NCBI GenBank assembly: GCA_017499595.2
Contig: CM039000.1
Location: 1,240,001-1,304,000 of the forward strand
Length of the DNA: 64,000 bases
DNA from: Psilocybe cubensis
Lineage: Eukaryota
Direction of reading: 5' to 3'
The notes beneath the pieces were generated by a model. It was given only the letters and a program-made list of their open reading frames with translations, did not search any database and was not told where the DNA came from. A program made the translations under genes and the position numbers. Below, piece by piece: positions 4,314 through 64,000 of this stretch (position 1 is its first letter; the number at the start of each line of letters is the position of its first letter).

Positions 4314-6506
4314 TTAATATTCTCCGGAGTCGCTAATCAGTGCTGCTGCCTTTTCTCCTCGAGGTTTGACCTCACACCTGAAAGGGATAGGAAATCTTGT
4401 GTAAAAAAAGGAGGGAAACGTAAGTACAACAATCCACATATCCATAGCTTCTTTTCCACTCACGAAACCATCCCATTTGTTACACCTGCTTTGAGGTCCA
4501 CGGGATTTCCATCGCTGCCGAGGATTGGTTTGATGTCAAAGGCGGCTAGGACGGAAGACACAACAATATATAATGCATTGTCGCTCAAATGTCTCCCTGG
4601 GCAGATTCTACGTGTGCTAATAAGCTCGTTCTTTCCCATTTGTATATAATACTGTGACTCACCGGCGACCAAAGCCAAATGCTGCGCACTTCGGGTCAAG
4701 AGCATTGGGGTCGAGTTGGCCATTCTTCAATAAATACCTTTCGGGTATGAATTCAAGAGGGTCCGAGAAGACAATTGGATCATGTAGAATGGACCTCAAT
4801 AAAGATTCAACATACATTACACATAAATTCACATCAGCATTCAAATCTTACCAAGAATTTCCTATCACTATGGTCCCTTGAGGGATAAAGTATCCATCGT
4901 ATTCATCATCTTGCGAACTTGAGTGACCAAGACCTATGTTTTCATGTAGATAAACCATTAAATATTAGGTCACGAGTTCCACGCACCAAGAGGAGTGACC
5001 AGCTGCCACCGCATGGTTTCTTTGACTACGGCCATGACATATGGAAGAGAAAGCTGATCACTGAACTCTGGCAGGCGGTCCCTACCAATCACTCGGTCTA
5101 ATTCCTCTTGAGCCTTTCTTTGAACTTCTGGATACAAAGCCATGGCCATGAAGAAAGATTGAGTTGCTGACACGGTCTGTTGAAGTGACTTAGATTATCA
5201 ACAATACTGGAGGCGCTTTCATAGTTTCACTTGCCGTGTCTGCACCACCTATTGCAACCAAGTTTCCAAAGAATGCATTAATCAAGCTGGTTCAATCCAC
5301 CTGGTATAACTAACATTGAGCTTACCGATATATGCAACAGCTGCCACATTCTGCGCAATTGCTCTCTCATCAGCGTACCCAGGATCAGTTTCTTCGGGCA
5401 GCCGGTCTATCAAGGACGTAGCCATGGAAGGCGTTGCCTTTCCTTCTTTCTATGAAAGGCATTCTGTTCAGCTAAATAATGGCGCAAGTTCAAGTCGAGA
5501 AAAACCTACCATATTTTCTTCGACGCGAATGAAGGGATCTTGTACAACATCAGTATTGATTTTACTCCACTTGGCTGCTTTGCGCTTGAACCCAGCTCCA
5601 GGGAACCAAGATGGAACATATTTCAATATCGGCATTATGTCCACTAAAAAGGCCCCTGGAACACCAGCTTCTGTAAGACCCTCAAGAGCTTCTTCAATCT
5701 TCAGAACATGGGGATCGGTAGACGAGTCTTCAACTCTGGCGCCGTACGCGATATCCATGATCATGGCAGCAAAAGTACTGTATATTAATTAGCGTAGTCA
5801 AGCATTTCAGGAAAATTCAAAGATGTCTGAACGATACTAACTGCCGAATATGGTGCAAAAACTGATTTGGTGAATCCAGCAGATTGCGGAGTAGTGCACG
5901 AGACTCGCGTTGCTGCAATGCCTTATACTTCCAAACAGTATTCCGGTGGAAATGTTCATTGAATGCCCGTCTGTGCCTGCGCCATGTTTGTCCGTACGGC
6001 ATGAGTGCCAGACTGAAGCTCCAGTTCATACTATTCGTCATACTGGTTGTGGTTCTTTGAAAACAAGAATGATCAAGGGCTATCACTTACAGTTCGACGA
6101 GCATAGGCATGTGCGCTCTGCTAGAGTAATTCCATGACCGTCTGTCGAACAGGTCGCTTGTTCTCTTAAGGGAGCCAAGAAGAAGAAATGGTTGTCCTAA
6201 AACCTCGAAATATACCATGTCACCTGGTACAAAATAAAGTCAACTATGGTTTTGGAAGATACGGAAAGAAATACCATAGATTTTAAACCATTGATCGTAT
6301 ACAAGCCACGGATATTCCAGTGGCATATCAAATATGCTCCCAAGTATAGGGAGTCCCTTTGGACCTGGAGGTAGAGGAAGGCGTCTAGGATTGCGTCTAG
6401 TACTGGCTCTTACGCGCAAAAAAGCAACATAAGAGACTGTTCCTGCAATAAAGCCATAGAAAGGATGTTCTACAATGAAGTCACCGACTCGCCTCAGCAC
6501 AAACAT
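4314..6506 (-). CDS. Cytochrome P450, multi-exon
   Basis: N-terminal anchor and PPGPKGLP, I-helix GGADT, ExxR (KETMRW), PERY, heme motif FGFGRR/ICPG. Confidence 0.93.
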
Positions 6507-11408: not shown

Positions 11409-12149
11409 GGTGGTAGGAACACACAAATCTTCCAAACGGCTCCTCTGAGGAACCTCCGTGCGCTGCAATCTCCCCGAATATGTATTAGCCTGAGAAAACA
11501 CAGCTTCCTCCAATTGATGAAAACTTGATCAACCCGTTTGGCAAGAAGGAGGTTTCGTGCATATCTGAAAAATATATTCTGCACAGCACCTCAAGGGAAT
11601 GTCATATATGGGTCGCAAAGTAGCGTTGGAAAAGAAAGGCAGGAGCTTTTCAGGTTCATTGAATTGCTTGAGGCTCGTAGAGTTACATCCGACGTGAAGT
11701 TCAAAGGACCAAAATAGAGGGATGAAACAGAAGAAATGGGGCAGCCGAAGGGCCGAATCAATTAATGTCCACATGATCCGGCCACTGTGCTTACCAAGAC
11801 CCAAGCCTGGCTGCCACACATAGTATTACAAACGCAGCGTAAGGGCAAGGATCGACAAGGTATCCATCCAAGATAATTTGCAGAGGAAAAACATAGATTG
11901 TGGAAAGTCCTGATTCCGGATACTTAAGCAGCGTAAAAGGCTACCTAAAGGTGTGAATAATGACATCAAAATTCGGATTTCTCGTAGATAATCGTGAATC
12001 AGTAACAAATCTTTAAAAACCACTAAATAATGTGTACCTAAGTTTCCAGTGAGAAAATAACATACAATGTGGTAGCGACACAAATCGCATCATCAAAACG
12101 GTTGGGTAACCAATCGACAACAAATTGCAACAGTCGTTGTCTGCTTAGA

Positions 12150-34409: not shown

Positions 34410-35312
34410 TTAGACCATCATTGCCCCAATGACCGCTGACAACAGTGCGAAACCGCTCACGGCTACTTTTGAGGCGCTGGATGAATTACCACCGCTGCCC
34501 CCCGGGGAAGTGCCCACGTCGCTAGACGGTGTGGCGGAAGCAACGGCGTGCAGACCTCCAGTGACAACTGCAGTGGCATCGTCCTAAAATTCAAACTTCA
34601 GAAATTATGCAAAGTAAATCATCGAAGGGAACTTACAGTTGGAGCGTTACTTCCGAGTGCTTTGGCTGCTTGCACGAATGCATCGAAAGTATTCCCGGTG
34701 GCGGGTGCGTTGATGCTTCCAACCATACCAGTCCCGCAATGTGTAATCTGCTTGCAGTGGAACCACACCGCTAATTTGGAGATTTATTTAAAGCTTTGAC
34801 ACATTTTAGCCAGTAGGTGCAACTTACGACTAGAGTCCGTTACATTGATGGTGAATGTTGAGGCCGTGACTAATCCAGAATCGAATCCGGCAGCGGCGCT
34901 ACCATTGGCTTGCAAATACGTGCATGGGTTTTGGAAAGAAGACTGGGTAACAGAGTGTGCAAGTGGGCTAAGCAGGATGTTTAATTCCAGCGATCAGAAG
35001 CAGCATAGTCAGATGGCGTACCCTCCTGGGAAGTAGAAGGTGATCTGCGTTCCAGGTGTAGCAGTGATGTTAGATGGATTATAGACTAGGCTTCCATTAG
35101 GGGCCACATCAACCTGTATGAATAGTTAGGAATAACGACCATTGCAATAAATTATAATCACTGACGTTAATCTGGTTTCCGCTACTTGGTGGCGCAGAAG
35201 GCACTGATGCAGCGGCGGACGTTGTTGGGCCTGGATTACTTGGAGGAGCATAACCATACTGCGCAGCAGCAAAGACCGGAAGGGCAAGCAGAACGGCAGA
35301 TTTCGTGAACAT
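34410..35312 (-). CDS. Secreted, probably GPI-anchored cupredoxin-like protein, copy 1
   Basis: Signal peptide MFTKSAVLLALPVFAAA; HSVTQSSFQNPC..GFDSG; FHCKQITHCGTGMVGSIN (H, C, H, M type-1 Cu ligand pattern); hydrophobic C-terminus. Confidence 0.82.
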
Positions 35313-36219: not shown

Positions 36220-37141
36220 CTACGCAAAGAGCATTACAATTGCCACCGATAATGCGGCAAAGCTGCTAGCCACAAGTGTGGTAGCGCTGCTGGCAGTGCC
36301 GCCGGAAGATCCTCCAGTGTCACTGGATGGTGCGGCAGTGGCGACACCGTGGACACCTCCAGTAGCAACTGCGGATGGGTCATCCTAATGAGAAAAAAAG
36401 TTAGCGCTTAATCGGATCGTCAAAGATGACAGAATCGTTTACAGTTGGCGCGTTTGCTCCTAGACTCATAGCCGCTGACATGAAAGCATCGAAGGTGTTA
36501 CCGGTGCTTGGTGCGTTGATAGTACCAACCATACCAAGGCCACAATGTGTGACCTGTTTACAGTGGAAATATATAGCTATTGGAAAGGCAGGCAAAAGGT
36601 TAATTGATTTGTATGCCTCTTTTGGAGGGTGTAAATTATTTACGCACGTTGATCGTCCGTAATATTTAATGTAAAAGTAGATGCCAATACCAAACCGGAG
36701 TCGAAGCCCGCGGGATCGCTACCGGTCGCCGTAAGATACGTGCAAGGGTTCTCGAATGACGACTGAGTAACTGAGTGCGCAGTTGTCCTGTTGAAGCTAC
36801 TCAGACAACGCAGATAATTGAACCACGTCAAGCAACTCACCCGCCTGGGAAAAAGAATGTAACAGTACTACCAGGGCTAGCACTGACATTGGCGGGATTG
36901 TACACGAAGTTTCCATTGAACGCTACATCAATCTGCAGGGAGATAGTTTTTGATAAACTGTACGTTACTCGGGAACAGGGTTACTGACGTTTATTTGATT
37001 TGCCGTGCTCGGTGGTGCAGATGGCACACTGACGGCAGCGGCGGCGGTTGTTGTCCCGGGTGCAGGGCCAGGTGGGGGTCCGTAAACTTGCCCAACGACG
37101 AGCGCAGGGAGAACAAAGAGGGTTCCAGCTAATGAAAACAT
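36220..37141 (-). CDS. Secreted, probably GPI-anchored cupredoxin-like protein, copy 2
   Basis: Signal peptide MFSLAGTLFVLPALVVG; HSVTQSSFENPC..GFDSG; FHCKQVTHCGLGMVGTIN; same exon layout as copy 1. Confidence 0.82.
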
Positions 37142-42723: not shown

Positions 42724-44835
42724 ATGTTTGAAGGTCTACTTGCGCCGATAGGTCACCATACGAGCTACTGGATGTTGGGAGGGATCATTGTTTGTGGGAT
42801 CATTGACAAAGCAATAAGAGCCAGGAGGAGAAATCCTCGACTTTTGCCTCGTCCTCCTGGTCCCAAAGGTCTTCCGATCTTAGGAAGTGCATTGGAAATG
42901 CCTCGCGAACAACCGTGGCTTGTATACGATCAGTGGTTCAAGGTTTACGGTGCGTTATTTTCTGTATCTTTACAGCTTTTAACTATTGGAATTCAATGTA
43001 CTCATTTTATCTTCAGGAGATATGGTGTATTTCGAAGTTCTCGGGCAACCGTTCCTTGTTCTCGGGTCTCTCAGAAGGACCACCGATCTTTTCGACAGGC
43101 GATCTTCAATCTATTCGGATAGACCACGAATGCCAATGCTGATTGAACTGTGAGTCACTTAGTTGCAAAACCACGACGGCACATTTAATACTGAAAATTT
43201 ATTTCCCGCCTCATCAATCATGTAGTATGGATTGGACATTTAACATGGTACTTATGCCATATGGACCATGGTGGCGTCAACACAGAAAGACTTTTAATGA
43301 ATACTTTCATCAAAACGCAGTTGCAAAGTATATTCCCGTTCAGCAACACGAAGTTCGCGTCTTTCTCTATGAGCTTTTAAGAAAACCACAAGATTTTATG
43401 GAGTCTAGCCGCCAGTCAGTTTGTCCAATAACTCATTTGCTTACTTCTAGGATCTCTGATTTCAAGGCCTTCTTCTCACCAGTATGTTCGCCGCTACTAT
43501 CATGAGAGTGGTTTACGGCATTAGAATCAAAGATTCAACAGATCCATCCGTAGCAGCTGCCGAAAAAGCACTAGAAATTTTAAACACTGCAGGAACCCCT
43601 GGGGCATTCCTCGTGGATGTGCTTCCAATCCTCAAATATGTCCCTTCTTGGCTTCCTGGTGCTGGATTCAAAAAGAAAGCGGCTAAATGGAAGAAGTACA
43701 ATACCCTAATCGTCGAAAGACCATTCCAGCGCGTTGAAGAATTGCTGGTGAGTATCCCTCCAACTAGATCCCATACTTGGCATGCTAATTGATAGCTACG
43801 TAGAGGGAGGGCGAAGCACTACCCTCCATGGCATCTGCACTCTTAGAACGATTACCCGAGCGGAACGATCCGTCTTATGTTGAAGAGAGGAAACTCGGTC
43901 AGAATGCCACCTGTCTTGCATATCTTGGAGGTGCAGATACGGTAAGTCTTCATATGATAGTTTGAAATTGTTCAGCTCAGTGTGGTGCCGTCTAGACACT
44001 TTCTGCAGTTCACTCATTCTTCTTAGCAATGATACTGTATCCCGAGGTACAAAGGAAGGCCCAGGCAGAGCTGGATTTAATCGTCGGCCAGCACCGTTTG
44101 CCAGATTTTAGCGATTATGATTTTCTACCGTACATCAATGCTCTGGCAAAAGAAACGATGCGCTGGCACTTGGTAACGCCCCTTGGTATGATTTCTTCCA
44201 TTTAGGCATGTGTAGAGGCATCAACTCCTGGATAGCTATTCCACACAGATGCACAGAAGACAATGAATACGACGGATTCTTTATTCCCAAAGGAACGATC
44301 GTAATGGGAAATGCCTGGTAAAGCTACGTCTAAATCATGTCTTTTCGCACAGATCTAACTAAAAATTCAAAGGACAATTCTCCACGATCCAGTGGCCTAT
44401 CCAAGTCCCTCGGAGTTCCGGCCAGAAAGATTCTTGAAGGATGGTAAATTAGATCCAACTGTAAGAAGTCCAGATTGCGCTGCCTTTGGATTCGGCCGTC
44501 GGTAAGTAAAGGTATAATAATACCAACCGTGGTTCTGAGCCGTCTCTACTGTCCAGTATTTGTCCTGGAAGGCACATGAGTAATAACTCGCTATACTGTG
44601 TCATCTCTTCCTTCCTAGCCGTGTATAACATTAGCGCACCGTTGGATTCCCTTGGGAACCCAGTAGATGTGCAACCAGAATTCAACGATGGCCTGGTCTC
44701 GTGAGCCTTCCTTGAAATATTTATGATATACCTGCTGACATTATTTTTAGTTTCCCTCTACCATTCAAATGCACAATCAAGCCTAGAAGTCCTCAGGCCG
44801 AGGCGTTGATTCGCAGTGGGATTGAAATGGATTGA
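42724..44835 (+). CDS. Cytochrome P450, paralog of the gene at 4314-6506
   Basis: [78 protein letters not shown]. Confidence 0.93.
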
Positions 44836-51196: not shown

Positions 51197-51625
51197 ATGA
51201 AACTCATCGCTGCCCTTTCGTCGCTATTCTTTATGCCAGCTCTTGTCGCCGCAATCAGCGTCAGCTCGGACGCAGTCTACGATAATGCCGGACAGTCCCT
51301 TGCGTCTGTCGCCTGCTCAGATGGATCCTTTGGAATGTTAACCAGAGGTTTTACCACATTCAACTCGTTGCCCAAATTCCCTCATATTGGTGGTGCACCA
51401 TCCATCAAAGGGTACAATTCACCCGATTGTGGGTCATGCTGGAACCTCACGTACACCAACGCTGCTGGCATTCCAAAAACCATCAGCATCTTGGCCATCG
51501 ATCTCGCTACGCCAGACTTCAACATCGCGCAGTCTGCTTTCAGCGAATTGACTGGGGGAAACGTGGCCAGTGGACGAGTCCCGATTGTAGCCGTTAAAGT
51601 TGCACCTTCAGTTTGTGGATTGTAA
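51197..51625 (+). CDS. Cerato-platanin family secreted protein
   Basis: Signal peptide; YDN...VACSDG..GM...FNSLPKFPHIGG...YNSPDCGSCWNLTY...ILAID...FNIAQSAFSELTGG...CGL with four conserved Cys. Confidence 0.93.
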   Translation: MKLIAALSSLFFMPALVAAISVSSDAVYDNAGQSLASVACSDGSFGMLTRGFTTFNSLPKFPHIGGAPSIKGYNSPDCGSCWNLTYTNAAGIPKTISILAIDLATPDFNIAQSAFSELTGGNVASGRVPIVAVKVAPSVCGL

Positions 51626-52214
51626 GAAGATTATTCATATAAGCCAATGACTTATCACTGATTCCTTGATTTTCTGCAGGTAAACACTCTCTATCATACT
51701 AGTGGCTGCTAGGATATGATTTTTTGAATACTTGACGCTGGGCCACTTTTGAATATCTCGATTCAAATCGAATTTACTTTGCGCTTGAAATAAAGTTTGA
51801 AAATAAACTTCATGTCCTTTATCTAATATTCAAAATAAGGAGGGATCGAAAACAGATCACAGCTGTTAGCCGTTTTATGAGTACATAGTGCCGTGTGGAC
51901 TGGTTGTGGACAATGAAATGCTCCGTGTAGCCCCTAGATTTACGCCTTATTAGGTGCTCTGACGTCCCCTAAATAGCCGCGCTAACCATCAAAGAACAGA
52001 ACTCGGTGTAACCTCCATCTGAACTACTTAGATGGTGTTCCCTAACACACGACAGCAACGACAGCTCCTTTCAAAGAACCTCATCGTATCCATTGTTGGA
52101 AGATATAAGCAAGATAGCCTCATACCTCTGCCAGGCGTACCAATTGAAGTTCGCAAATTTCCCCTGAGTACCCGGATTCTGGTTCTTGAAAACTCAGCAC
52201 GGAAGAGACAAATA

Positions 52215-52244
52215 CAGTTGAACCCCTCTTAACCCATACCTCTC
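52215..52244 (+). repeat. Left terminal inverted repeat (30 bp)
   Basis: Exact reverse complement of 63922-63951. Confidence 0.95.
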
Positions 52245-52855
52245 AAAACCCATAACCCCTGGTAACCCATAGCATCAGCTGTCCACCAACTTGGTTCGCA
52301 GGGAATTGCACACCATAACCCATAAGTTCGCAATAACCCATAACCCATACCCCTTCACTCTCAAAACCCATAGGTTTTACCTACCATATATAGGCTGGGA
52401 CCTTTACTTTTGTGTCAAAATTTAGTACCCCGGTGGCTTATTTGGGTAAAGTACCACTGAAACCTCCTCGTAGCTACAAAAAATGAAAAAATTTCGCCGG
52501 AGGCTCAACACACTGGCTTGGAAACTTCGGCAATCATTCGGCAAAGAATTTTTCAACCCCGCTCTGTTCTTACCAAATACATCAGCAACATGGACAATCC
52601 TACACGGCGGGACCTTCGCCACTGTTTTTTTGGCGTCGATCGGAGTTACAAATAAATACGTTTAGATTTACAAAATAAAACCAAATTTAATACTGAAAAT
52701 TAGCATCCGTCGGCGATGTGTTTAGCCGCGTTAAAAATCACAAAATAACCAGTGCGTCAATGAGTCTCTGTTTTATAGCTTCAAATCCACTTCCTTACCA
52801 CAGTCGTGTTCTGATTCTTTTTTTTTGTGGCAGCTAATTTGACGGCAGCCTAATA

Positions 52856-55800
52856 ATGGTCTTCGGCATTGACCCTGCTGGTTAGTGACATCACTCTCGG
52901 TCCACCTTACTACTCGGCTGAATTAAGAATAGTCGTTCAACGACAAGTTGTACACGGTCAAACACTCTATTATTGCCGGGTCTGTCAAGATACAAAAGGT
53001 CGCCAAAAACACCACCTCAATGAGCACTTCAACACCACAAAACACCAAACAGCTCTGCAGGCATTTCATACCAAAGAGAAATCCTCTGCTTCTTCACAAA
53101 CCTCGTTGCCACCGGTTAACAAGTCCCTTTTGTTAGAGGACGCCTTACGTGCAATTCTTGTGTCTGCATCTCGTCAACCACACCAGCCTTTGTATCCTGC
53201 CAATGACCCTCGCCTTTCTAGGGTCTCGGCTGCACCTTCTTCAACCACTTCGTCGACGGTCTCTCCACTCACCGGGATTGACTGGAATCTATTCAACGAT
53301 GATGAAATTATGTCGGATCCATCTCCCATCGACTTTGCGTCTGCCCAAATATGTCAAGCTACTCTGGATTTTCTAAATTCTAATGACGAGAGTGATGGAT
53401 CTGATGATGGTGGTGGCAGTCCTCCGCTTTCTGAGAGTAGCGATGAGCAAGCCAATTCAGGTGTGTAACATCTAAATAGCGCATATTGTTTGAGTCCTTA
53501 ACTTTTAATCAGACACTGAACAAGTTGATAATGAATCTTTGCCCCGAAAACGTATGCGCGGTATTCACACCGACCCGGCTGAAGCTCGAAAATGGTATCC
53601 GTGGATTGATAAAATTGTGAGTCTTTGCCTGCCATTGGTTAGATTTTCTGCTCAATCAATAAATCAGACTTGTTCTCTTGACGTTTTGATGCACCTTCCA
53701 CGATCACTATTTTCACGTCGTCAGCTGGATTTATTTCTCTGGCTACTGCGTATCAATGGCGTCAACGATGTGCCTAGCATTAAGGCTATGCAAGGCATTA
53801 ACAAGGCATTGCAGAATTTGTGTGGAATTGAGACGAAGGAGTACAAGGGCAAGCTGGGCAATGTATACTTTGTAAATTCTCTGTCTCAAATTCTCGCCCA
53901 GGTATGAATCTATATGTTACAAATGAATACTTTTGATTTCTAACCAATCTGAATAGGAAATGTCTAATCCTCAAGTCCGACCGTTCCTTCACTTCTATCC
54001 TGAAGATACGGGCAAATCGATTAGCGAAACCTATCAAGCTTCGGGTTGGCTGCGTGAAATCAATCCTGAGGATGGTACTCCAATGATACGGCTCAATAAT
54101 AATGATTTTTTCATCTTTGAACCAACTATGCTGATTGATGGACGTTGCTGCATTCCTATTCGATGGTTTCTCCGAGAAGGTGTATTTTATGCCAAAGCCT
54201 GGCTTATGGAAGATACTCCTAGTGGTTGGGTTGTGTCCGAAGATCGCGAAATCGAAATCACGCAAAGCCAATTGCTAAAGAATTTTATTCAGTTGTCAAA
54301 GGATCACTTGTTGTATAACTTGTCACACCCTTCACGAATATTTGGTATGGACTATATTTTATATATTTTATTCAATTTCTTATAAGTAAACAGGTGTGCG
54401 ATCCAATTCGGGGCCTGGGCTGTCAAAATGGACACGTACAGATCCTACTATTGGCAATCGTTGGCGTGTATTAGCAAAGGGACACCGAGTCTATTCTCTG
54501 CCACTATGGATGTACTGTGACGATACGTCGGGAAACCAGTCCAAGAAGTGGAATAAGCACAACAGCTACCTATTTATTCTAGCTGGTCTTCCTCGCGAAA
54601 AGAGTTCACAAGAATACAATATCCATTTTCTGTGCACTTCAAATATTGCGCCACCTCTAGAAATGCTTGATGGTGTGGTTGATCAACTTCAGTAAGTTGT
54701 CACTATCTTATATTTGCTGCACATATTCTAATCATTTTAACTTCAGATTGGCTCAAAAACATGGTATTTGGGTATGGGACTGTATACACAAAGAGGCCGT
54801 TATGATTTTTCCACCTGTATTTGCACTTCTGGGTGACAACCCTATGCATAGCGAGTTTGCTTGTCATATTGGAATGCAAGGGAAATATTTTTGCCGGATT
54901 TGCTGGGCCAAAGGAGTCGACAGTCAAGAATGCCCACACAAAAATCTTCCACATGACAGTTGTGCTCGACCCAACTCTCCTACCCTTTCAATCCATAGTG
55001 ATGTTGATTCTGAAGATACCTTCACACGGCCTTCTCACAAACGGCGGAGGTACAAGGAGTCTATGGAGTCAATGCTTCGAAGGGTTAGTGATTTTATAAA
55101 GGTGCGTAAAAGTTGTTTTATAACAATTTATATTTTAATCACCTTTGATTCTAAGATTGGCAAACCGCGTCGCAAGAAAGAGACTATGGCTACTCTTGAC
55201 TCTTTTTTGGAGCAAGCTAAGATGATTGGCACAAAATCAAAACTTAGAGCTGCAAAAACGGAAACTGGCATCAAGGATGTTTTCCAGGACTTCTTTATTG
55301 AAAAGCTTTTCAAATCTTATAAGGGAAAAGTTTCTACTCAGGCAAAGGAAGAAGCTCTTAAAGCGGCTGTCGATAAGCTTCCTGGAGACATCAAAAGTCC
55401 CGTATGGAAACTTGGTGCGATTGAAATATTTTGCTTTAATTTACTAGCTAAATCTATATTCCAGGCTTGGATCCTCATCAGGACACTCCCGTCGAAATTC
55501 TGCATGTTGTATTGCTGGGTTTCGTTAAATATTTTTGGAGAGACCTAGTTCAAAATCAGGTTACTCCTGCTAAAAAGCAAACTTTGATTATTCGTTTAAA
55601 CAGCCTCAGTGTGGCAGGTCTAGGTGTACCCACATTAAATGGCTCCACACTAGTGAACTATGCCGGGTCACTAACTGGTCGCGATTTCCGAATTATTGCT
55701 CAAGTAGCGCCATTTGTCATCTACGACATGGTTTCTCAGGAGGTTTATGATGCATGGGTGTCCCTATCTACGTTAGTTCCGGTTATTTGGCAGCCAGCAA

Positions 55801-57271
55801 TCTCTAACATTGATGAGTACCTGGTGCGTCTTCATTGTGTCTTTCTTTAAATTGTTTTATTAAATTAAATCATGTTTTAGCCCAGATTAGAGGCCGACAT
55901 CAAATACTTTTTGTTGAAAACGGCAACATGGACCTGCGCGTGGTTTAACAAAACCAAATTTCACATTATTCTTCATCTTCCAGAACATGTCCGTCGGTTT
56001 GGGCCAGCAATATTGTTTGCCACGGAATCGTTTGAGTCATTCAATGCTATTATCCGTGCAAAAAGCATTCACAGTAATCACCAAGCACCTTCACATGATA
56101 TTGCCCGTGGCTTTGCGCAAGGCAATCGGATTCGCCATCTTCTTAGTGGTGGTTTTTTTCTTCCACAAGAGCTTTATCAGTCTTGGAAAAAGGATCCAAC
56201 AAATGTGGCTAATTCAGAGTGGCGCACTGCTGGACCTGGAGGTCTTCACCTTATTGATGCTCCAGACTCAACACCAGCTAGCTATTTGGGACTGCAGAAA
56301 CCTGCTGCCAGTAAGGCTGGTAAGTTATATTTACAAATCTATACTACTAGTGAGCGGTCTAATGCAATGGCCTAGGTTCATGCAAATCTAATGGCACAGA
56401 TCCTCAACCATTTCATCGCACATTATGTGGCCAAAAGCTTCCCAACATTGTGCTCAATACTGCAGCCAGCCAACAACTGTATGTAACCAATTCCCAGGTC
56501 TATCTGAGAAACGAGGATCTATGCACCATAGGACAGTTTGTCATTGCCCAAATTCATCCATCCCAGCCGCCTCTGATAGGGTGTGTTCGAGAGATCTTGC
56601 AGCAGGTTGGCTCTCCAAACCATCTTCAAAACCGGCCCGATGGTATTCTTATTCAAACAGCTTTACACCAACCGCCGTCGCACATATTGCCTGCTGGACA
56701 ACTGCAGCCAGTTTTTATGCCCCGTCTGATTCTTCAGCAGGAGTGGTCCTTCATTCCGTGGAGTTGCCTTCTTTGCACCGTAAATACTCAACATGACTGT
56801 CAACGTCATGGATGCCAGGCAAATGGGCTACAATACATCTATCAAGAGCGAATACAAACTGATCAGACTAAGGCAACGATACTGCATCAAAACTCATTGG
56901 ATGATATGCTCCTCCTCAATATGTGTCAAATGCGCGATGCTGCTCATCTCCAAAGTTTTCGCCTCCACTCTGCCCCGTTAAACGAAGATGCTATAATTCA
57001 AAGAAGTGTGGCTCAAGCCATTGTTCAACGGAAGGCAGGAGAAGCCTCCCAATCAAGTACTTCCAAACCAACCAAAACACCAACAGCCGCCTTGAGACAA
57101 CATGCCCAGAGCCCCTTGGGCACCCCTACTCTAGCAGCCACACCTTCTGGGGGTGTCAGTTTGCCTCAACATGCTTCAGCAGGAACATCTTCTGGAGGTG
57201 TTAGTTCACCTCGACGTAGCAGGCAAGCATCTGTGGTATATCCAGGTCAAATAACATTGGACTTTCGATAG
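52856..57271 (+). CDS. DDE transposase, CACTA/Mirage/Chapaev (CMC)-like, with N-terminal C2H2-type Zn finger; 11 exons, about 1,290 aa
   Basis: Ten GT-AG introns join the ORFs with no stop seen. Motifs: YYCRVCQ..HLNEHFNTTKH; MYCDDTSGNQSKKWNKH (D1); LLGDNPM (D2); FCRIC (CxxC); VEILH; KFHIILH (HxxxH); FATESFESFN (E); C-terminal NTQHDCQRHGC. Confidence 0.82.
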
Positions 57272-57324
57272 AAGTAAAACCATACTGTATTTATTTACTA
57301 GAATTCTACAAGAAGAATAGCAGA

Positions 57325-59662
57325 TCAAACTTGTCCAGAGACCTCAAACGCAGCTTTTGAAATAAGATCTTGTAAGGTGCACAACATGCCCAACCCCCTC
57401 TTCCATCGTGTTGGCCTAAGCTCCATTTGCTCTTGATAAAGCTTGGGGTTTGTACGTTTTAACTCCTTCTCGGTGCGGTAGCCATAATCAACCCATCTAA
57501 ACAGGCCACCTGAAGCATACTGAGTAAAGGAAGCACGCTCCTCTCCGTGTTCAATGCTGGTGTTTGAATGTTCTAGGACGGCGGACGGCATAAGGATGGT
57601 AGATCCTGCAGGGAACTCAATGGCCACTTTCAGGCCCCACACCACAAAGTGACCACCCTTTTTGGCATTGAATTTCCCTAAAGACTGGATGGCGCACCAG
57701 CCATATGGACAGTTTTTGATATCAAAATGCGGGATGGTGCAAACCACAGACCCTAGGTTGAAGGTGGCCGCCGGAAATATGCTGCGGCGAAACAGTCGGA
57801 CTAGCGTGGAGTCATTGGCGAATATCTTATCCATGTACAACTTATAGTGGTTGTACACTTTAGGGCTCCATGTAGCAAATGCACCTGTGGATGTGTTTAA
57901 AAACAGGTTCACAAAACAGGCATAGGGGTCACTTACTGCTGGCAAAACTGGCCATTCGTTGAATGCTTTCCGACTGCAAGAGCTTGGCAGTGATTTTGGG
58001 ATGGCGCTGGACGCGGTTGAGTGGAGAGTGTGTCCCTACACCGTGTGTAACGCCGATGTTGAGTGCGGGATAATGACCACGATTTTCTGAATAGTCTTCG
58101 TGTGTAAACGCTGTGGTGTGTCCGGCCTCCCTCAGTAGATCGAATGCTTCCTCCGTGGCACGTTCGTATGCAGGGTCCTTAGGACGGCCTGCCAGAACCA
58201 TAAAAATACGTCCGTCTTCAGAAACAAACGGGACGGGGGTGCTATAGTGCATTAGCTTTAACTCCATCAAACTGAACAGATCAGAACAGTTGTAACTCAC
58301 CATCCATCCCAAGGTATAATGCGGAACCCAAGGGCCTTGATGGCATCCAAGCTATATAGGTGACTTTTGTGGGGTTTTGTCGGTTTAGCACCATAGGCGC
58401 CTTGCGTGGCAGGCAAAGCGTCAAGCTTGACGTTGAGAGCCTCTGGCTGGCAGCTGGGAAGCATGCTTAAAAGACTGGGTTTTGGTGCGTGTCCGTGCTT
58501 ATTGTATTGTAACGTCCGCTGATACTTGCGGCTGCGATGACTGTTGGAAAGCCCATCGTATGGCCTTTTCAGGCTGGCGGTTTGCACGGATGGGTCTCGC
58601 TGAGGTAACAAAAGCGAAAGCTTGGTCGACGATTGCGAAGGTACAATCGGCGGTGTCGACATATCGTCAACCGATGGTGTCGACGCATCGTGGGCTGACA
58701 GCATCGACTCGCGGGTTGACGGGGTCGACGCGTTGTGGGCTGACGTCGTCGATTCGCGGGTTGACGGGGTCGACGCGTTATGGACTGACAGCATCGACTC
58801 GCGGGTTGACGGGGTCGACGCGTTGTGGGCTGACGTCGTCGATTCGCGGGTTGACGGGGTCGACGCGTTATGGACTGACAGCATCGACTCGCGGGTTGAC
58901 GGGGTCGACGCGTTGTGGGCTGACGTCGTCGATTCGCGGGTTGACGGGGTCGACACGTCGTGGATCGACGTCGTCGATTCGCGGGTTGACGGGGTCGACA
59001 CGTCGTGGATCAACGCCGTCGGCGTCGACGTATTGTTCGTAAACTGCGTCCAGGTATCGTCCGTCGACCGATTCTTCGACGCATCGTGGATCGACGGCGT
59101 CCAGATGTCGTGAACGGATGGCATCGACGTATCGTCGGTCGATGGAATCAAGACATCTATTGACAAGTACGTGAATGGGCAGATGACGAGTAGGCAAACA
59201 TGGTGACTCACCTTGATCCAGATCTAACAAGTCTGTGTCCTCCCTTGCATCTGCTGCCCGCCAGGCAGAGATCAAGTCAAAAGCCAACGGATCCTCCCAT
59301 ACCTCAGGCTGACACTGGGCATACACCCTCCCAGATCGTGTCTGCTTGAACAGATTTCCGATTTAAAACTCGGTATATGCATAGAAAAGTTTCCAAGGAC
59401 GTACCGTATAGCGCGCCCATTGGCAGGCCGACATCTGTGCATGCAAAAACCGACGGTGAGCAGGGTTCTTGCAATCACGACACGCCCCAGCTCCTGCGTT
59501 GGCTGGCAGTTTGACAGACCCGGCCCAGGGGTGATCCCTCGCCTGGCAAGCCTCTAACCAACGCGAGAGCTGGGCCCTGTCGCGTTTCTGATATACGAAC
59601 GTTTGCTTACCGGTGGGACGGGTATTTATACGAACGCGAATGAGGGGAATGTTGAACCTCAT
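57325..59662 (-). CDS. TET/JBP-family 2-oxoglutarate/Fe(II) dioxygenase (fungal transposon-associated type); 5 exons, start codon uncertain
   Basis: ..TRSGRVY..; IIPWDG/CTPVPFVSEDGRIFMVLAGRP; RGHYPALNIGVTHGVG; FPAATFNLG..TIPHFD (HxD); GWCAIQSLGKF..KKGGH; IEFPAGSTILMPSAVLEHSN (distal H); EERASFTQY (2OG-binding R); GGLFRWVDYG. Confidence 0.88.
58655..59015. repeat. Coding minisatellite: 7 x 45-bp units with 90-bp higher-order periodicity
   Basis: Core TCGCGGGTTGACGGGGTCGAC starts at 58709, 58754, 58799, 58844, 58889, 58934 and 58979. Encodes H(N/D)(A/V)STPSTRES(TTSA/MLSV) in the TET/JBP frame. Confidence 0.95.
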
Positions 59663-59911
59663 TAAACAGATCAGGGGTCAGGTGATAGGGGTCAGGTGAC
59701 GTAGGTGGACGCGTCGCACCCGCGACACACTTCAACTGCTTTGACCTCAGAACACCTGGTTATACGTCAGTCCGCTACAAACACAAACACCGCAGAGTAA
59801 TGCAGGTCTCAGGAATACTACCCAGGTGCGTTATATTTCATGCATCCCTTTTGTAAGGCCAAATTGACAATATAGTATTGAAAGTGCTGCAGATTCTATC
59901 TCACAAACCGT

Positions 59912-60815
59912 CTAAACAATAGCGATGGGATTGTCAGACTGCAAAGGCTGAGGAGGAATGTAAACCGGTACGTTAATGCCATGGGACGTCAACGCTGCTT
60001 TCAGCTGTTGGCTCCAATGCCTCTCTTCCACCAGCATAATTGCTGTGTTGTGTTCCTGTCTGACATATGTCCTCAACTGCTCTTCTAGACCCTCCACCAC
60101 CAACGTCAGGTATGCAGAGCGTCGTTTGGAATTCTTCACAGACCTAACCAAGTTTTTCACCGCCTTTTTAGTTGACTGGGCCTCCTGGCGTGCTGCGGCA
60201 AGGTCCAACCATGCCGTTCGAAGCTGATCCTTATAGGCCGCAGCTTCTCTTGTTGCCTCGATGGCTATTTCACGCCGAACAGTAATCTCTGCCTCCAGAT
60301 CGCGTCGGGAACGTGGATAGGCCCTGTTCAAGCCGATTGTGGTTTTGTGGCGAGGAACCTCGGAGGAATGGTCTAATAAAGTGGATGTGAGTGGTCTCAA
60401 CCTTTCACAGCAATACTGTCAACTTATGAAACGCACCATTCTTTTCAGGCATTTTGGATACAACCGGCTGGTCTTCGAGATCGCTTTGGCACGTTGATCC
60501 AGGAGTATCACCTAGTTGAGTTTGGATGGTGTAAGTTCAAGTGCGTTCGTGATAAGATTCTATTTACCAAGGCCGTAAAAACTGTAGTTGGGCAGACCAT
60601 CAGTAACGTCAAGCCCTACGGGTGGGAGGTCAGGGTAGGTTATGCTGAGGTTTAACAAGGTTTGTTTACTGACCTGCATTCAGAGTTGACAGGTACTTTT
60701 TAGGTGCCTCATCGTCTTCATCTTGGTTGTGCTTCCTGAAACTTTTTTTTGGCGATGGAGTCTTAGGCGACAGCAGGCGGGATGGTAGACAATTGTCAAG
60801 AGTGTTGGTAGACAT
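59912..60815 (-). CDS. Transposon passenger gene: coiled-coil protein of unknown function, multi-exon
   Basis: ATG 60815 MSTNTLDNCLPSRLLSPKTPSPKK...; plausible GT-AG introns; last exon has heptad-rich RRDLEAEITVRREIAIEATREAAAYKDQLRTAWLDLAAARQEAQ. Confidence 0.6.
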
Positions 60816-60964
60816 GTTGAGCGGTTCAAGATAACGAAACCACACAAATATCAGACTGATGGTTAAGGGAGTGAGAGAGTGAGACAAAAGGTGAGCAAAC
60901 CTTTGGAATAACTTTGACGCCTCCTTTTTATGTGACGCGTAGGTTTGTTGTTGTCGACGTGACA

Positions 60965-61030
60965 CGACGCGAATTGTTGATTGACCTCGAACGCGACGCG
61001 AATTGTTGATTGACCTCGAACGCGACGCGA
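60965..61030. repeat. 29-bp tandem repeat (2.3 copies) in the divergent intergenic region
   Basis: CGACGCGAATTGTTGATTGACCTCGAACG at 60965-60993 and 60994-61022, plus partial CGACGCGA. Confidence 0.9.
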
Positions 61031-61113
61031 TTCGTTTGTTGTGGCAAACATGGCAAATCAAACTTGGGGTATAAAAGCAAGGTAAGAGACGTTTGCTTGA
61101 TTCTGAATCCACA

Positions 61114-62674
61114 ATGTCTCATTCTTCGATTGACCCAGCTTTTGCATCACAGCCTGTTTCTCGTGACGTGGACCGCCCAACTGGTACACAGCTGTTTATT
61201 GACAACCTGGTTCACCGATTCAACCTCACAAGCGACCACAGTGCAGATCTCACTTTTCTTTATCAGGTAAACTTGTTTTTTACATAACGCCTACATCAAA
61301 CTGCTTCTAACTCGTAAACCCGCAGATCTGTACAGCCGTGCCTGAAGAGCAACCTCCTTACACCGAAGTGATAAGTCGAATCATGATGTTGGCCTGCCAG
61401 TTTGGGGCCGAAGTTCGTCTGCATAAAGCACTGACTGCCACGCAAACACATCTACAAGGACTCGGGCAGCTGAGCAGTTTTTTGGCTGATTATGAGCTGC
61501 AAAAAGATGAGAACTTTGTGTTATCAAACGCACAAAAGGTGAGTCATTGTTTGCCTTTATGAACACGGTGGTCTGAGCCAGCTTTTAGATGGCCATTAAA
61601 TCAACCTGTATCAAAGAGCTTCTAAAGCCCTCTAGACAGTCCTTTAAGACGCTTCACATCGATGTTGAGGTGCGTTCTTTTCACTTTAATTGGCGGTCTA
61701 AAACAAATGCATTTGCAGGCAAAGATGAAAAAAAAGCCCGCAGACAATTACCTTGACAACATCCTGAATCGGCTGGGACGTGAGGCCAAATGGATGGCGC
61801 ATATACGAACCGTTTGTACGATTCAGAGAAACACGCTTCGAAAAGAGGTGTGTGGTTGTCCGGTTTACCATATGCCGTGTACTGATGTGTGAAATTAAAG
61901 ATCATACAAAGCATAACTCCAGGCCCAAAGTTTACTTCTGTGCAAGAATTTGCGGCGGGCCTCATTGTGAAATATCGTCTGCCTACGTCAGAGTCTGGTG
62001 CAAATTCCAACACAGCTTACCTCTCAAAACATGTGTTATTGGTGTGTCTTCAATATTTCTGATTCAAAAAGTTTCACTAACGTGGCAATGTAAAGCGGCG
62101 GTTTTTCTGGGACCATTCATCTACGTTTTCGGCCTTTGAACTTGAGAAGGATGACAACAACTCAGAAGAGGAGAACAATGACCAGGATTTTGGAACACCA
62201 AGCACCGACAACTCTAGCGATTCGGGTCATTCTGCTACCAAAAAACGTAAATTGCAAAAAACAAACATTCCCGCTGGGAAAACTCGCGGTCGGGTGGCTG
62301 ATGGCGAAGACTATTGGTCCAAAGTTGATCAATGGCTCAAGAGGCTTGACGATGAGCTGGGAGATAATACAGCTGAGTTGAAACAGTCCGAGTTTTCTCT
62401 TGTATTCTCAATGAGTTATGCTAAGCTTGTGAATAGATTTATTGCTGAATGTCTGGAGATGGACTCTCTCAGGACCAATAAAGGCTTAGATTTCTCAAGC
62501 CACCCTTCCGAGCGCTCTTTTACCAGCCCTAGCAATGTCACATCCGACCCACAACCCACCACTATACAGTCCTTTCCTTCCAATTCTTCTTCGAGGCTGC
62601 CTGAACCTCATTTAAATTTTGGTAATGCAATTGCTCAATTATTTAGTGGTCCTTCAACAGGTAGACCTTTTTAG
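61114..62674 (+). CDS. Transposon passenger gene: unknown, probably helical protein with acidic/basic tract, multi-exon
   Basis: MSHSSIDPAFASQP..LFIDNLVHRFNL..LYQ/ICT..; ENFVLSNAQK/; HIRTVCTIQRNTLRKE/; acidic EKDDNNSEEENND, NLS-like KKRK, GRVADGEDYWSKVDQWL; GT-AG introns of about 50-60 bp. Confidence 0.6.
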
Positions 62675-63148
62675 CCACTAGACTCCACTACAATATAGTT
62701 ATTAATTATGCGGAAATGTATGTGTAAACGCAACTAAATCTGAAGTTGATGTTGAGAACATGTAGCCCCTAATATTCAGTTTGCTAGTGTTTGGCACCGG
62801 TGATCATTTGATCAACAGCAACGAGTTATCGCTTTCATCTTTTCCTCCATGATCTCGCACAGCGGCACCGTGTTTTCCGCCGTGCATTGTTAAGAGATCC
62901 AGCCCTTTCATGTACTAAAAGCCATGCACTGGAAAGATCCAGATTCCCAATATGTGGGAACGCGTTGAGCGGCATGGTTGGGCATAGTTTTTTTTTGGTG
63001 ACTGACATTTGATTTGTAGATCGCGCACTGGTGCAAGAACCTGCTTATTGCTGAGTATTTTTAGACAGCTATCCATGGCGAAAATTACTTATTTTAACAC
63101 CACAGGTTCAAGAATATGTGCTTTGAAGTTTGACAAGGTCCAAGAACA

Positions 63149-63307
63149 CCATTGCCGGAATCGATAGCCATCGTCGACACCATAGTTTGGCTCTGGAGAA
63201 TGGGTGATAGTTGGATGCGCAACACAACATCGTCAACGCCATAGCCGGAATCGATCGCCATCGTCGACACCATAGTTTGGCTCTGTGGAATGGGTATTTG
63301 TGGATGC
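63149..63307. repeat. Imperfect direct duplication (about 70 bp, 90-bp period) inside the transposon
   Basis: GCCGGAATCGAT(A/C)GCCATCGTCGACACCATAGTTTGGCTCTG..GAATGGGT starts at 63154 and again at 63244. Confidence 0.85.
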
Positions 63308-63921
63308 AATAACCCAGTGAGTACTTTATAGGATAGACGTTAGATTAGTAGTTATTTAGCTTCAGCTTCATGCTCAATATATGGTGTTTTATTATAACCT
63401 AATCTTGTATGAAAGACCAAAAATAAAATTTCACAATGATATTATACTGTGAATACATATGAAAAGCCTACAAAAAAATATGTATTTGCTAGAATGTGGC
63501 TGACACAAACGGTGCTTGGCACTTATGTGGCAGCCACATGAATTTCGGCCTGTTGTGTCACCCACTGATATCGGATGGAGGTGGCAGACACATGTTTATT
63601 TGTGTCTGACATACATCGGCCAAACACATCCAAAAATGTGTCCAGCGGCCGCCTGTGTACTGCCCGTACAATTGAAACACTTTTGGACTCATTAAATAGA
63701 AAACTGTACCTTGAAGAGCCAGAACAATGAAAGATACTGTAGTAACTGATTATTTTAGATCATAGCTAGTAGTACCTTGAATGTATCTAATTAGTATCCG
63801 TCTTATCATCGAGGAATTTTTTGTGTATTTTTAACGATTTTTTCGCGAATTTTCAGGCCTGTATTTAGCATACCTCCTGAAACCCATAACCCCTGATAAC
63901 CCATACCCTGAGCCGTCCACC

Positions 63922-63951
63922 GAGAGGTATGGGTTAAGAGGGGTTCAACTG
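63922..63951 (-). repeat. Right terminal inverted repeat (30 bp)
   Basis: GAGAGGTATGGGTTAAGAGGGGTTCAACTG followed by TA. Confidence 0.95.
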
Positions 63952-64000
63952 TATACCTGGAAATGCATAATATCGAAGGGTGGTGAGGGCACGCGTTCGG

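Follow-up and report, generated by a model that had tools for sequence, protein, structure and literature searches.

Results

An intact transposase gene and a dioxygenase gene lie tail to tail within a transposon

We analysed a 64,000-nucleotide stretch of the Psilocybe cubensis genome (assembly GCA_017499595.2, contig CM039000.1, positions 1,240,001 to 1,304,000 of the forward strand; hereafter 'the window', to whose coordinates all positions refer unless a contig is named), with a transposase gene and the mobile element carrying it as the subject. Near the right edge of the window this gene is followed by a gene for a predicted TET/JBP-fold dioxygenase and by two putative spliced genes, open reading frames ORF3 and ORF4 (Table 1). 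Very probably, these genes belong to a transposon of the ESTA type (EnSpm-like elements with TA duplications) that is nested in an outer miniature inverted-repeat transposable element (MITE), the latter being the owner of the terminal inverted repeats (TIRs) beginning with CAGT which enclose the locus.

Table 1. Features of the locus, in window coordinates
Feature	Position	Strand	Description
Host MITE, left TA duplication	52213..52214	.	empty-site joint 52212->63952 in 2/4 runs; TA at 19/19 MITE ends
Host MITE (680 bp), left part	52215..52602	+	30-bp TIR 52215-52244; stand-alone copies match positions 1-389, then jump right
Last two bases of MITE left part, TA	52601-52602	+	target of the ESTA-type insertion
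DNA transposon, very probably ESTA type	52603..63657	+	11,055 bp; CACGGCGG...GCCTGTG; TA duplication; no long TIR
Transposase gene	52856..57271	+	intact, 1,294 aa from 11 exons; D469/D470 at 54519-54524, D556 at 54835, E899 at 56025
Predicted TET/JBP-fold dioxygenase gene	57325..59434	-	intact, 627 aa from 5 exons; H494-x-D496...H547...R558; 3' end faces that of the transposase gene
TET exon 3 tandem repeats	58673..59021	.	45/90-bp units, Ser/Thr-rich linker; copy number varies between copies
ORF3, putative spliced gene	59912..60815	-	exon structure partly modelled; tblastn of P0002 residues 1-221; weak sister-element homologue, E 3e-4
ORF4, putative 7-exon gene	61114..62674	+	~415 aa; open splice models; homologues beside both related transposase families
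Transposon right end	63649..63657	-	minus strand reads CACAGGCGG; left end reads CACGGCGG
TA duplication from ESTA-type insertion	63658..63659	.	single TA in uninterrupted MITEs; joint 52600->63658 in 3/4 runs
Host MITE, right part	63660..63951	+	30-bp TIR 63922-63951; self-comparison and stand-alone copies
Host MITE, right TA duplication	63952..63953	.	MITE copies and empty-site contigs

Copies and empty sites place the ends of the element inside a MITE

Self-comparison of the window reveals an inverted repeat of 30 bp without mismatches, next to TA on either side (52215-52244 and 63922-63951, E 2e-9). A first-pass annotation, made from the letters of the window, had taken such a repeat pair for the atypical CAGT termini of the transposase element. 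The pair exists, but it falls outside the transposase gene (52856-57271) and is not the terminus of the element. Genome-wide the 30-bp repeat occurs 19 times, as nine pairs and one single end, with TA adjoining 19/19 ends. Eight of the nine pairs span just 103-1,675 bp, the ninth being the long stretch in the window. Five of the short pairs (664-681 bp) match positions 1-389 and 11,444-11,737 of that long stretch, a sixth displays the same two-part match with one short segment replaced, and the uninterrupted copies carry a single TA at the very site where the inner element sits in the window. The same CAGT TIRs surround MITEs that hold no transposase, in line with the nested insertion which the annotation had itself named as the alternative.

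The transposase exon and the neighbouring TET exon each have 11 near-identical copies in the genome, and the window copy is alone among them in sitting between CAGT repeats. In the other ten the alignment runs from 52603 to 63657 and then stops, with unrelated flanks, and no MITE match was found in the flanks fetched for these ten. Nine of them are readable end to end, each as TA-CACGGCGG...GCCTGTG-TA, while the tenth, interrupted by an insert of ~7.7 kb, is bounded like the rest. A pattern search returned the left end 11 times and the exact right end also 11 times, always adjoined by TA, together with two further right-end look-alikes; reversed controls gave none. Contigs from four other public runs (X1-X4, of which X1-X3 come from one study) supply the unoccupied states of the site: contigs of the inner element from X1-X3 begin at 52601 and finish at 63659/63660, the joint 52600->63658 (MITE lacking the inner element) is present in contigs of three of the four runs, and the joint 52212->63952 (neither MITE nor element) in contigs of two, X1 and X2. 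Since the copies share CAC...GTG ends next to TA and the contigs contain the empty sites, we conclude that the transposase gene is part of an element of 11,055 bp, for which a TA in a 680-bp MITE served as the insertion site. The CAGT repeats are thus the MITE's, and at its own ends the element starts with CAC, as elements of the group usually do; the TA target duplication assigned by the annotation was correct, the copy flanks showing TA in every case (11/11).

Two other arrangements have to be weighed against nesting. One is a single 11.7-kb CMC-like element with Tc1/pogo-type CAGT ends, a view that draws on the perfect TA-flanked TIR enclosing the gene in the window and on the short same-ended elements, which look at first like deletion derivatives. 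However, 10/11 copies lack CAGT repeats and finish at CAC...GTG/TA, the short elements close up at a single TA, precisely the place of the inner element, and in other runs the inner element has identical limits while the composite is absent from the site; copy counts disagreed with this extremely improbable arrangement, and the comparison of copies refutes it. The other, still very unlikely, is that the MITE and the inner element now move as one composite by means of a Tc1/pogo transposase. The MITE has kept its two ends and the TA beside each intact, and the lack of both elements at the site in X1 and X2 fits one arrival as well as two, but the composite is found only once among nine TIR pairs, and no transposase of the MITE's type was found between the TIRs.

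A search for a subterminal repeat array in the ends of the nested element found none. Its right non-coding end contains two 74-bp direct repeats, 90 bp apart (63145-63307). Elsewhere in the genome (G000 in the locus coordinates that follow), two sites (G000:C4:3899272 and C9:2768655) carry ~55 bp (87%) resembling the element's right end with a common outer flank, and neither a left end nor a transposase was found in the DNA fetched there. A related second family, 63-64% identical over the exon searched, starts TA-CACGG in 3/3 copies. This family, which has no TET match (G000:C4:2274000-2294000, L078-L080; C3:3210000, L082), starts TA-CACGGCCGG, and two of its copies are arranged in tandem, 9,635 bp apart, with the junction GTG-TA-CAC.

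The transposase core is predicted to fold like RAG1

Ten GT-AG introns of 49-57 nt connect the transposase exons into one frame free of internal stops. The splice model is supported because database protein P0039 (labelled Psilocybe cubensis) gives a 97% end-to-end alignment with it and has the same first residues. The spliced protein starts with a zinc finger (C23-x2-C26...H40-x5-H46); the first-Asp motif DDTSGNQSKKWNKH holds D469/D470, and the second Asp, D556, lies within GDNP. C575-x2-C578, EILH744 and H878-x3-H882 follow, then E899 and, towards the C terminus, HDCQRHGC (H1136-D-C-x4-C1143). The order D...D-CxxC-LH-HxxxH-E, the C2H2 finger and the HDCxxxxC motif, all read earlier from raw frames, are therefore present in the spliced protein.

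Motifs were counted in those of 120 listed homologues that reach 900 aa, 84 in all: DDxSGN is present in 77/84, DNP in 79/84, CRxC in 71/84, TExFE in 83/84 and HxCxxxxC in 69/84, and FHxxxH in 84/84, the query exon itself having contained FHxxxH. The family is abundant in Agaricomycetes (353 matches; 812 representatives at E<=1e-30). Among 20 representatives looked up, one of them from a rust, homologues span Agaricomycetes to Atractiella, Phenoliferia and Melampsora; the Melampsora homologue retains DDTSGNVSKKWNKH at 30% identity (E 6e-114). A Pfam scan of eight transposase exon frames returned zero families above cut-off, and 22/23 full-length homologues were likewise free of matches above cut-off, the 23rd, P0090, having a Plavaka match at residues 125-445. 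A weak blastp match to a Transposase_21 protein was also obtained (E 7e-4).

For structural comparison we used a model of the catalytic core of the near-identical P0039 (pLDDT 75, pTM 0.74). Every top rank listed by Foldseek was of RAG1 type (best E 8.5e-6), and in a wider comparison RAG1 scored highest (Z 13.9, rmsd 4.6, 355 aligned), ahead of ProtoRAG (Z 12.8), the P element (9.2) and Transib (8.6). The modelled core thus folds like RAG1 and shares the fold and the order of zinc ligands with RAG1, ProtoRAG and Transib (PDB 4wwx, 6b40, 6pqn). It differs from RAG1 in that identity is only 10-14% and that no RAG2-like gene was identified in the window element. The heptamer of the recombination signal sequence starts with CACAG, and the right end of the window element starts alike; RAG1, ProtoRAG and Transib target 5 bp, whereas the window element has a 2-bp TA.

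The element fits the recently named ESTA lineage

ESTA was recently defined as a group of EnSpm-like elements which duplicate TA and whose transposases HHpred finds similar to RAG1 (Kojima 2025, PMC12730594, here and below as far as the accessible parts of that paper go). It was placed in the CMCT clade, which has in common C(2)C and H(3-4)H between the second D and E, termini of the form 5'-CA..TG-3' and a target site duplication (TSD) of 2-5 bp. Among the 82 ESTA entries listed, 81 are from rusts, the genus Melampsora included, and one is from Agaricus bisporus; 82/82 begin with CAC at the 5' end, three of them with CACGGCGG, places 59 and 88 of the 88 lying outside this count (PMC12730594). 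This is the only ESTA paper that our literature search found, and the search found none on the window element.

The window element displays both CMCT features: C575-x2-C578 and H878-x3-H882 provide C(2)C and H(3-4)H, and CAC...GTG ends with a 2-bp TSD are found in 11/11 copies. As in ESTA, the duplication is TA (11/11 copies), the inner element starts with CAC, and RAG1 is the closest relative by structure-aware search with the modelled P0039 core. Full-size ESTA entries listed measure 6.6-14.3 kb, a range that takes in the window element, and TET cargo is a further point of likeness (PMC12730594). The differences are that the host here is an agaric, that this copy is nested in a MITE, and that the four TET-bearing ESTA rows of the accessible Table S1 are all from Puccinia and of PU type, the window TET being of another type. 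We are highly confident that the element belongs to ESTA. The assignment is by TSD, ends and RAG1 likeness as described for the lineage.

Other superfamilies agree less well. Plavaka (PF18759) and EnSpm/CACTA (PF02992) share the clade and the motif order with the window element. Plavaka ends are described as TGT or CATCA, and the fungal TET-bearing EnSpm elements described make 3-bp TSDs (PMC12730594, accessible parts); the window element ends in CACGG/CACAG, has no PF18759 match in its exon frames, no Pfam match to EnSpm/CACTA, and TA in 11/11 copies. KDZ elements (Kyakuja/Dileera/Zisupton), which are characterised by PF18758, CxC domains and a TSD of 7-8 bp, are set apart by the 2-bp TSD. 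As for Tc1/mariner/pogo, whose members would have CAGT TIRs of their own and a DDE_1 or DDE_3 domain, the TIRs here are the MITE's and the transposase had no Pfam match. The annotation's placement of the transposase as CMC/Transib/RAG1-related and distinct from KDZ and Plavaka is borne out by the RAG1-type fold and by the eight exon frames, which contain no Plavaka, KDZ or Transposase_21 match. Its further proposal, a distinct CMC-related lineage, stands as regards KDZ and Plavaka but gives way in that the element fits the already described ESTA.

Several points weigh against this assignment. Membership was judged from shared features rather than from direct alignment to a named ESTA transposase. 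EnSpm-22_AB begins with the same nine bases, CACGGCGGG, and therefore ESTA and EnSpm are not told apart by this end alone. In a language-model search (Atlas features) Plavaka clusters ranked first (0.95), which shows kinship but with a blurred boundary. Alternatively, the element might represent a separate CMCT lineage, likewise with CAC ends and TA duplications, that stands beside Kojima's ESTA as its sister. The indirect nature of the ESTA comparison would leave room for this, as would the large size of the family in Agaricomycetes set against the single mushroom entry among the 82 listed; but the same TSD, the same first bases, the RAG1 likeness and the rust homologue with its signature motif (DDTSGNxSKKWNKH) argue against it, and we regard a separate lineage as unlikely. 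Membership in ESTA remains the preferred assignment.

The cargo is a predicted TET/JBP-like dioxygenase outside the tabulated types

The TET gene model is identical to database protein P0001. Its Pfam match to Tet_JBP (E 3e-4) is under the cut-off, and phmmer and profile searches found zero solved TETs at E<=10. The structural model aligned with CcTET (PDB 7vpn; Z 22.5, rmsd 3.6, 273 aligned, 10% identity), NgTET1 (5cg8; Z 19.2) and TET2 (Z 18.2), well above other 2OG (2-oxoglutarate) oxygenases. H494, D496, H547 and R558 are kept in at least 90% of 35 homologues. The predicted protein thus combines a TET fold with the HxD...H triad and the 2OG-binding Arg; it shares fold and HxD...H...R set with CcTET and NgTET1 and differs from them in identity, which is 10-13%.

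Three TET/JBP types, AG, PU and PE, are tabulated for fungal transposons (PMC12730594, accessible parts). The AG (CcTET-like) type was ruled out by the lack of phmmer or profile matches at E<=10, by the 10% structural identity and by differing AG rows, and the PE type, which has HxE, by H494-F-D496. GLFRW, GWCA or IEFP is present in 34/35 homologues of the window TET, and none of the three was found in the TET domains of the accessible Table S1, the single GWCA match there being in DNA; the window TET differs from AG, PU and PE alike in these signature motifs. The cargo is hence not among the three types tabulated in that part of the 2025 table. A sister element (G000:C4:964000-980000; L076, L077, L092) is laid out alike, its transposase exon being 72% and its TET exon 61% identical to those of the window element, and therefore the transposase-TET association is older than the recent burst. 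It is single-copy and contains the transposase, TET, ORF3 and ORF4, with ~8 kb extra between ORF3 and ORF4. Weak homologues of ORF4 adjoin both related families, including the one with no TET, and ORF4 may therefore be a core partner gene. Iyer et al. (2014) may already include the window TET type.

The window TET type is widespread in mushrooms and is not tied to ESTA. Of 13 other TET loci examined in the genome (among 16 other matches), eight adjoin a CxC2-KDZ transposase. In a tree of 43 catalytic TET exons, the window TET groups with that of the sister element and with two other genome loci (99/98), apart from the KDZ-linked ones. Among 80 metagenome TET loci, 41 of them under 5 kb, none has an ESTA-type transposase, which speaks against a general ESTA-TET link. 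The 17 loci that match probes comprise KDZ 7, Plavaka 6, Helitron 2, EnSpm 1 and IS3EU-like integrase 1, the probes being drawn from the same loci and adjacency not being proof of carriage. That the window TET is itself a nested Kyakuja insert was ruled out by 15 frames with no KDZ match and by its occurrence in 11/11 copies and in the sister family. Atlas features place the TET with phage Tet_JBP clusters (0.96) and 14/35 homologues match a single unnamed PHROG; tblastn against phage genomes returned repeat-driven noise only, and a phage origin is only a lead. A database protein labelled Panaeolus cyanescens, P0003, has two TET domains of the window type and may be a fused gene model.

Two intact copies coexist with a larger decayed group

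The window and C10 copies are 2 nt apart and both intact. They are outnumbered by eight decayed copies of 11,202 bp (G000 C2 (3), C5:402.9k, C6 (2) and C7 (2)), which are set off from those two at 108-109 sites; seven are identical to one another, and the group is one lineage. In its members transposase exon 6 has lost 1 bp near its start, the replacements R576Q, E741K and D818N are present, the TET model meets a stop at codon 6, and ORF4 likewise lacks 1 bp. Database annotation of the decayed transposase avoids the frameshift through another splice site, and therefore loss of the protein is likely but not proven. Of the 108 differences, 68 pair a CpG of the window copy with TpG or CpA in the decayed group, with eight the reverse, an excess expected from deamination of methylated CpG. 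This pattern suggests that the family has been methylated, and the decayed lineage was probably amplified in trans by intact copies like that of the window.

In the eleventh copy (G000:C5:3315547-3334321; L066, L067, L093) the start codon is changed and there is an internal stop; it is also the copy with the ~7.7 kb insert, which begins with TG and is retrotransposon-like. Another TET homologue lies ~6.5 kb past the right end of this copy.

The host MITE and its surroundings

The host MITE is non-coding, and from its CAGT ends we take it to be of Tc1/mariner/pogo type; the 30-bp TIR and the strict TA duplication are further likenesses to such MITEs. It differs in that no autonomous partner was located in the assembly: none of at least 7 DDE_1 or at least 30 DDE_3 matches in the genome lies inside a TIR pair, and no MITE similarity was found in the seven DDE_1 loci searched. 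MITE copy L086 (G000:C8:193712-195386) contains an insert of ~1 kb with CAC...GTG-type ends, and copy L015 (C11) a palindromic insert of ~100 bp. A cerato-platanin family gene (51198-51625, Pfam E 1e-34) lies ~590 bp before the MITE, and an X4 contig skips a 58-nt GT..AG intron at its stop codon. Farther away, 6085-6412 and 42815-43155, and 34633-35227 and 36439-37053, show inverted or direct similarities of 67-78%, probably between paralogous genes.

Discussion

In this study we have delimited an element of known kind, which adds a member to a lineage named only recently and whose cargo combination is absent from the accessible part of Kojima's table. The inner element would be an autonomous cut-and-paste transposon of the CMCT group and ESTA lineage. 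By analogy with RAG1, its DDE enzyme (D469 or D470, D556, E899) would bind the short ends beginning with CAC, with a zinc site formed by C575, C578, H878 and H882, and would excise the element and insert it at TA with a 2-bp stagger; it would also move decayed copies in trans. Judging from its fold and metal ligands, the passenger dioxygenase probably oxidises 5-methylcytosine and so may ease silencing, a function described as lacking experimental validation (PMC12730594, accessible parts). The outer 680-bp MITE is a bystander that offered the TA target. The case also illustrates that ends read from a single window need copy comparison.

A wider reading is possible, and we offer it tentatively. 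Mushrooms may harbour a fourth, uncatalogued type of transposon TET/JBP, apart from AG, PU and PE, whose closest look-alikes with a Pfam label come from phages and which would be passed between ESTA, CxC2-KDZ, Plavaka, Helitron and EnSpm elements. The young family described here might then be the first delimited TET-bearing ESTA outside rusts, with an intact TET-bearing subfamily and a more numerous, TET-broken and CpG-decayed one in one genome. If this is true, the intact and decayed pair would provide a natural test of whether TET cargo counters methylation.

The transposase family is abundant in Basidiomycota, yet it has no Pfam model. The window now provides it with an exactly delimited, intact and polymorphic ESTA-type element in a cultivable mushroom, a candidate for the study of a RAG1-like enzyme with a TA target.

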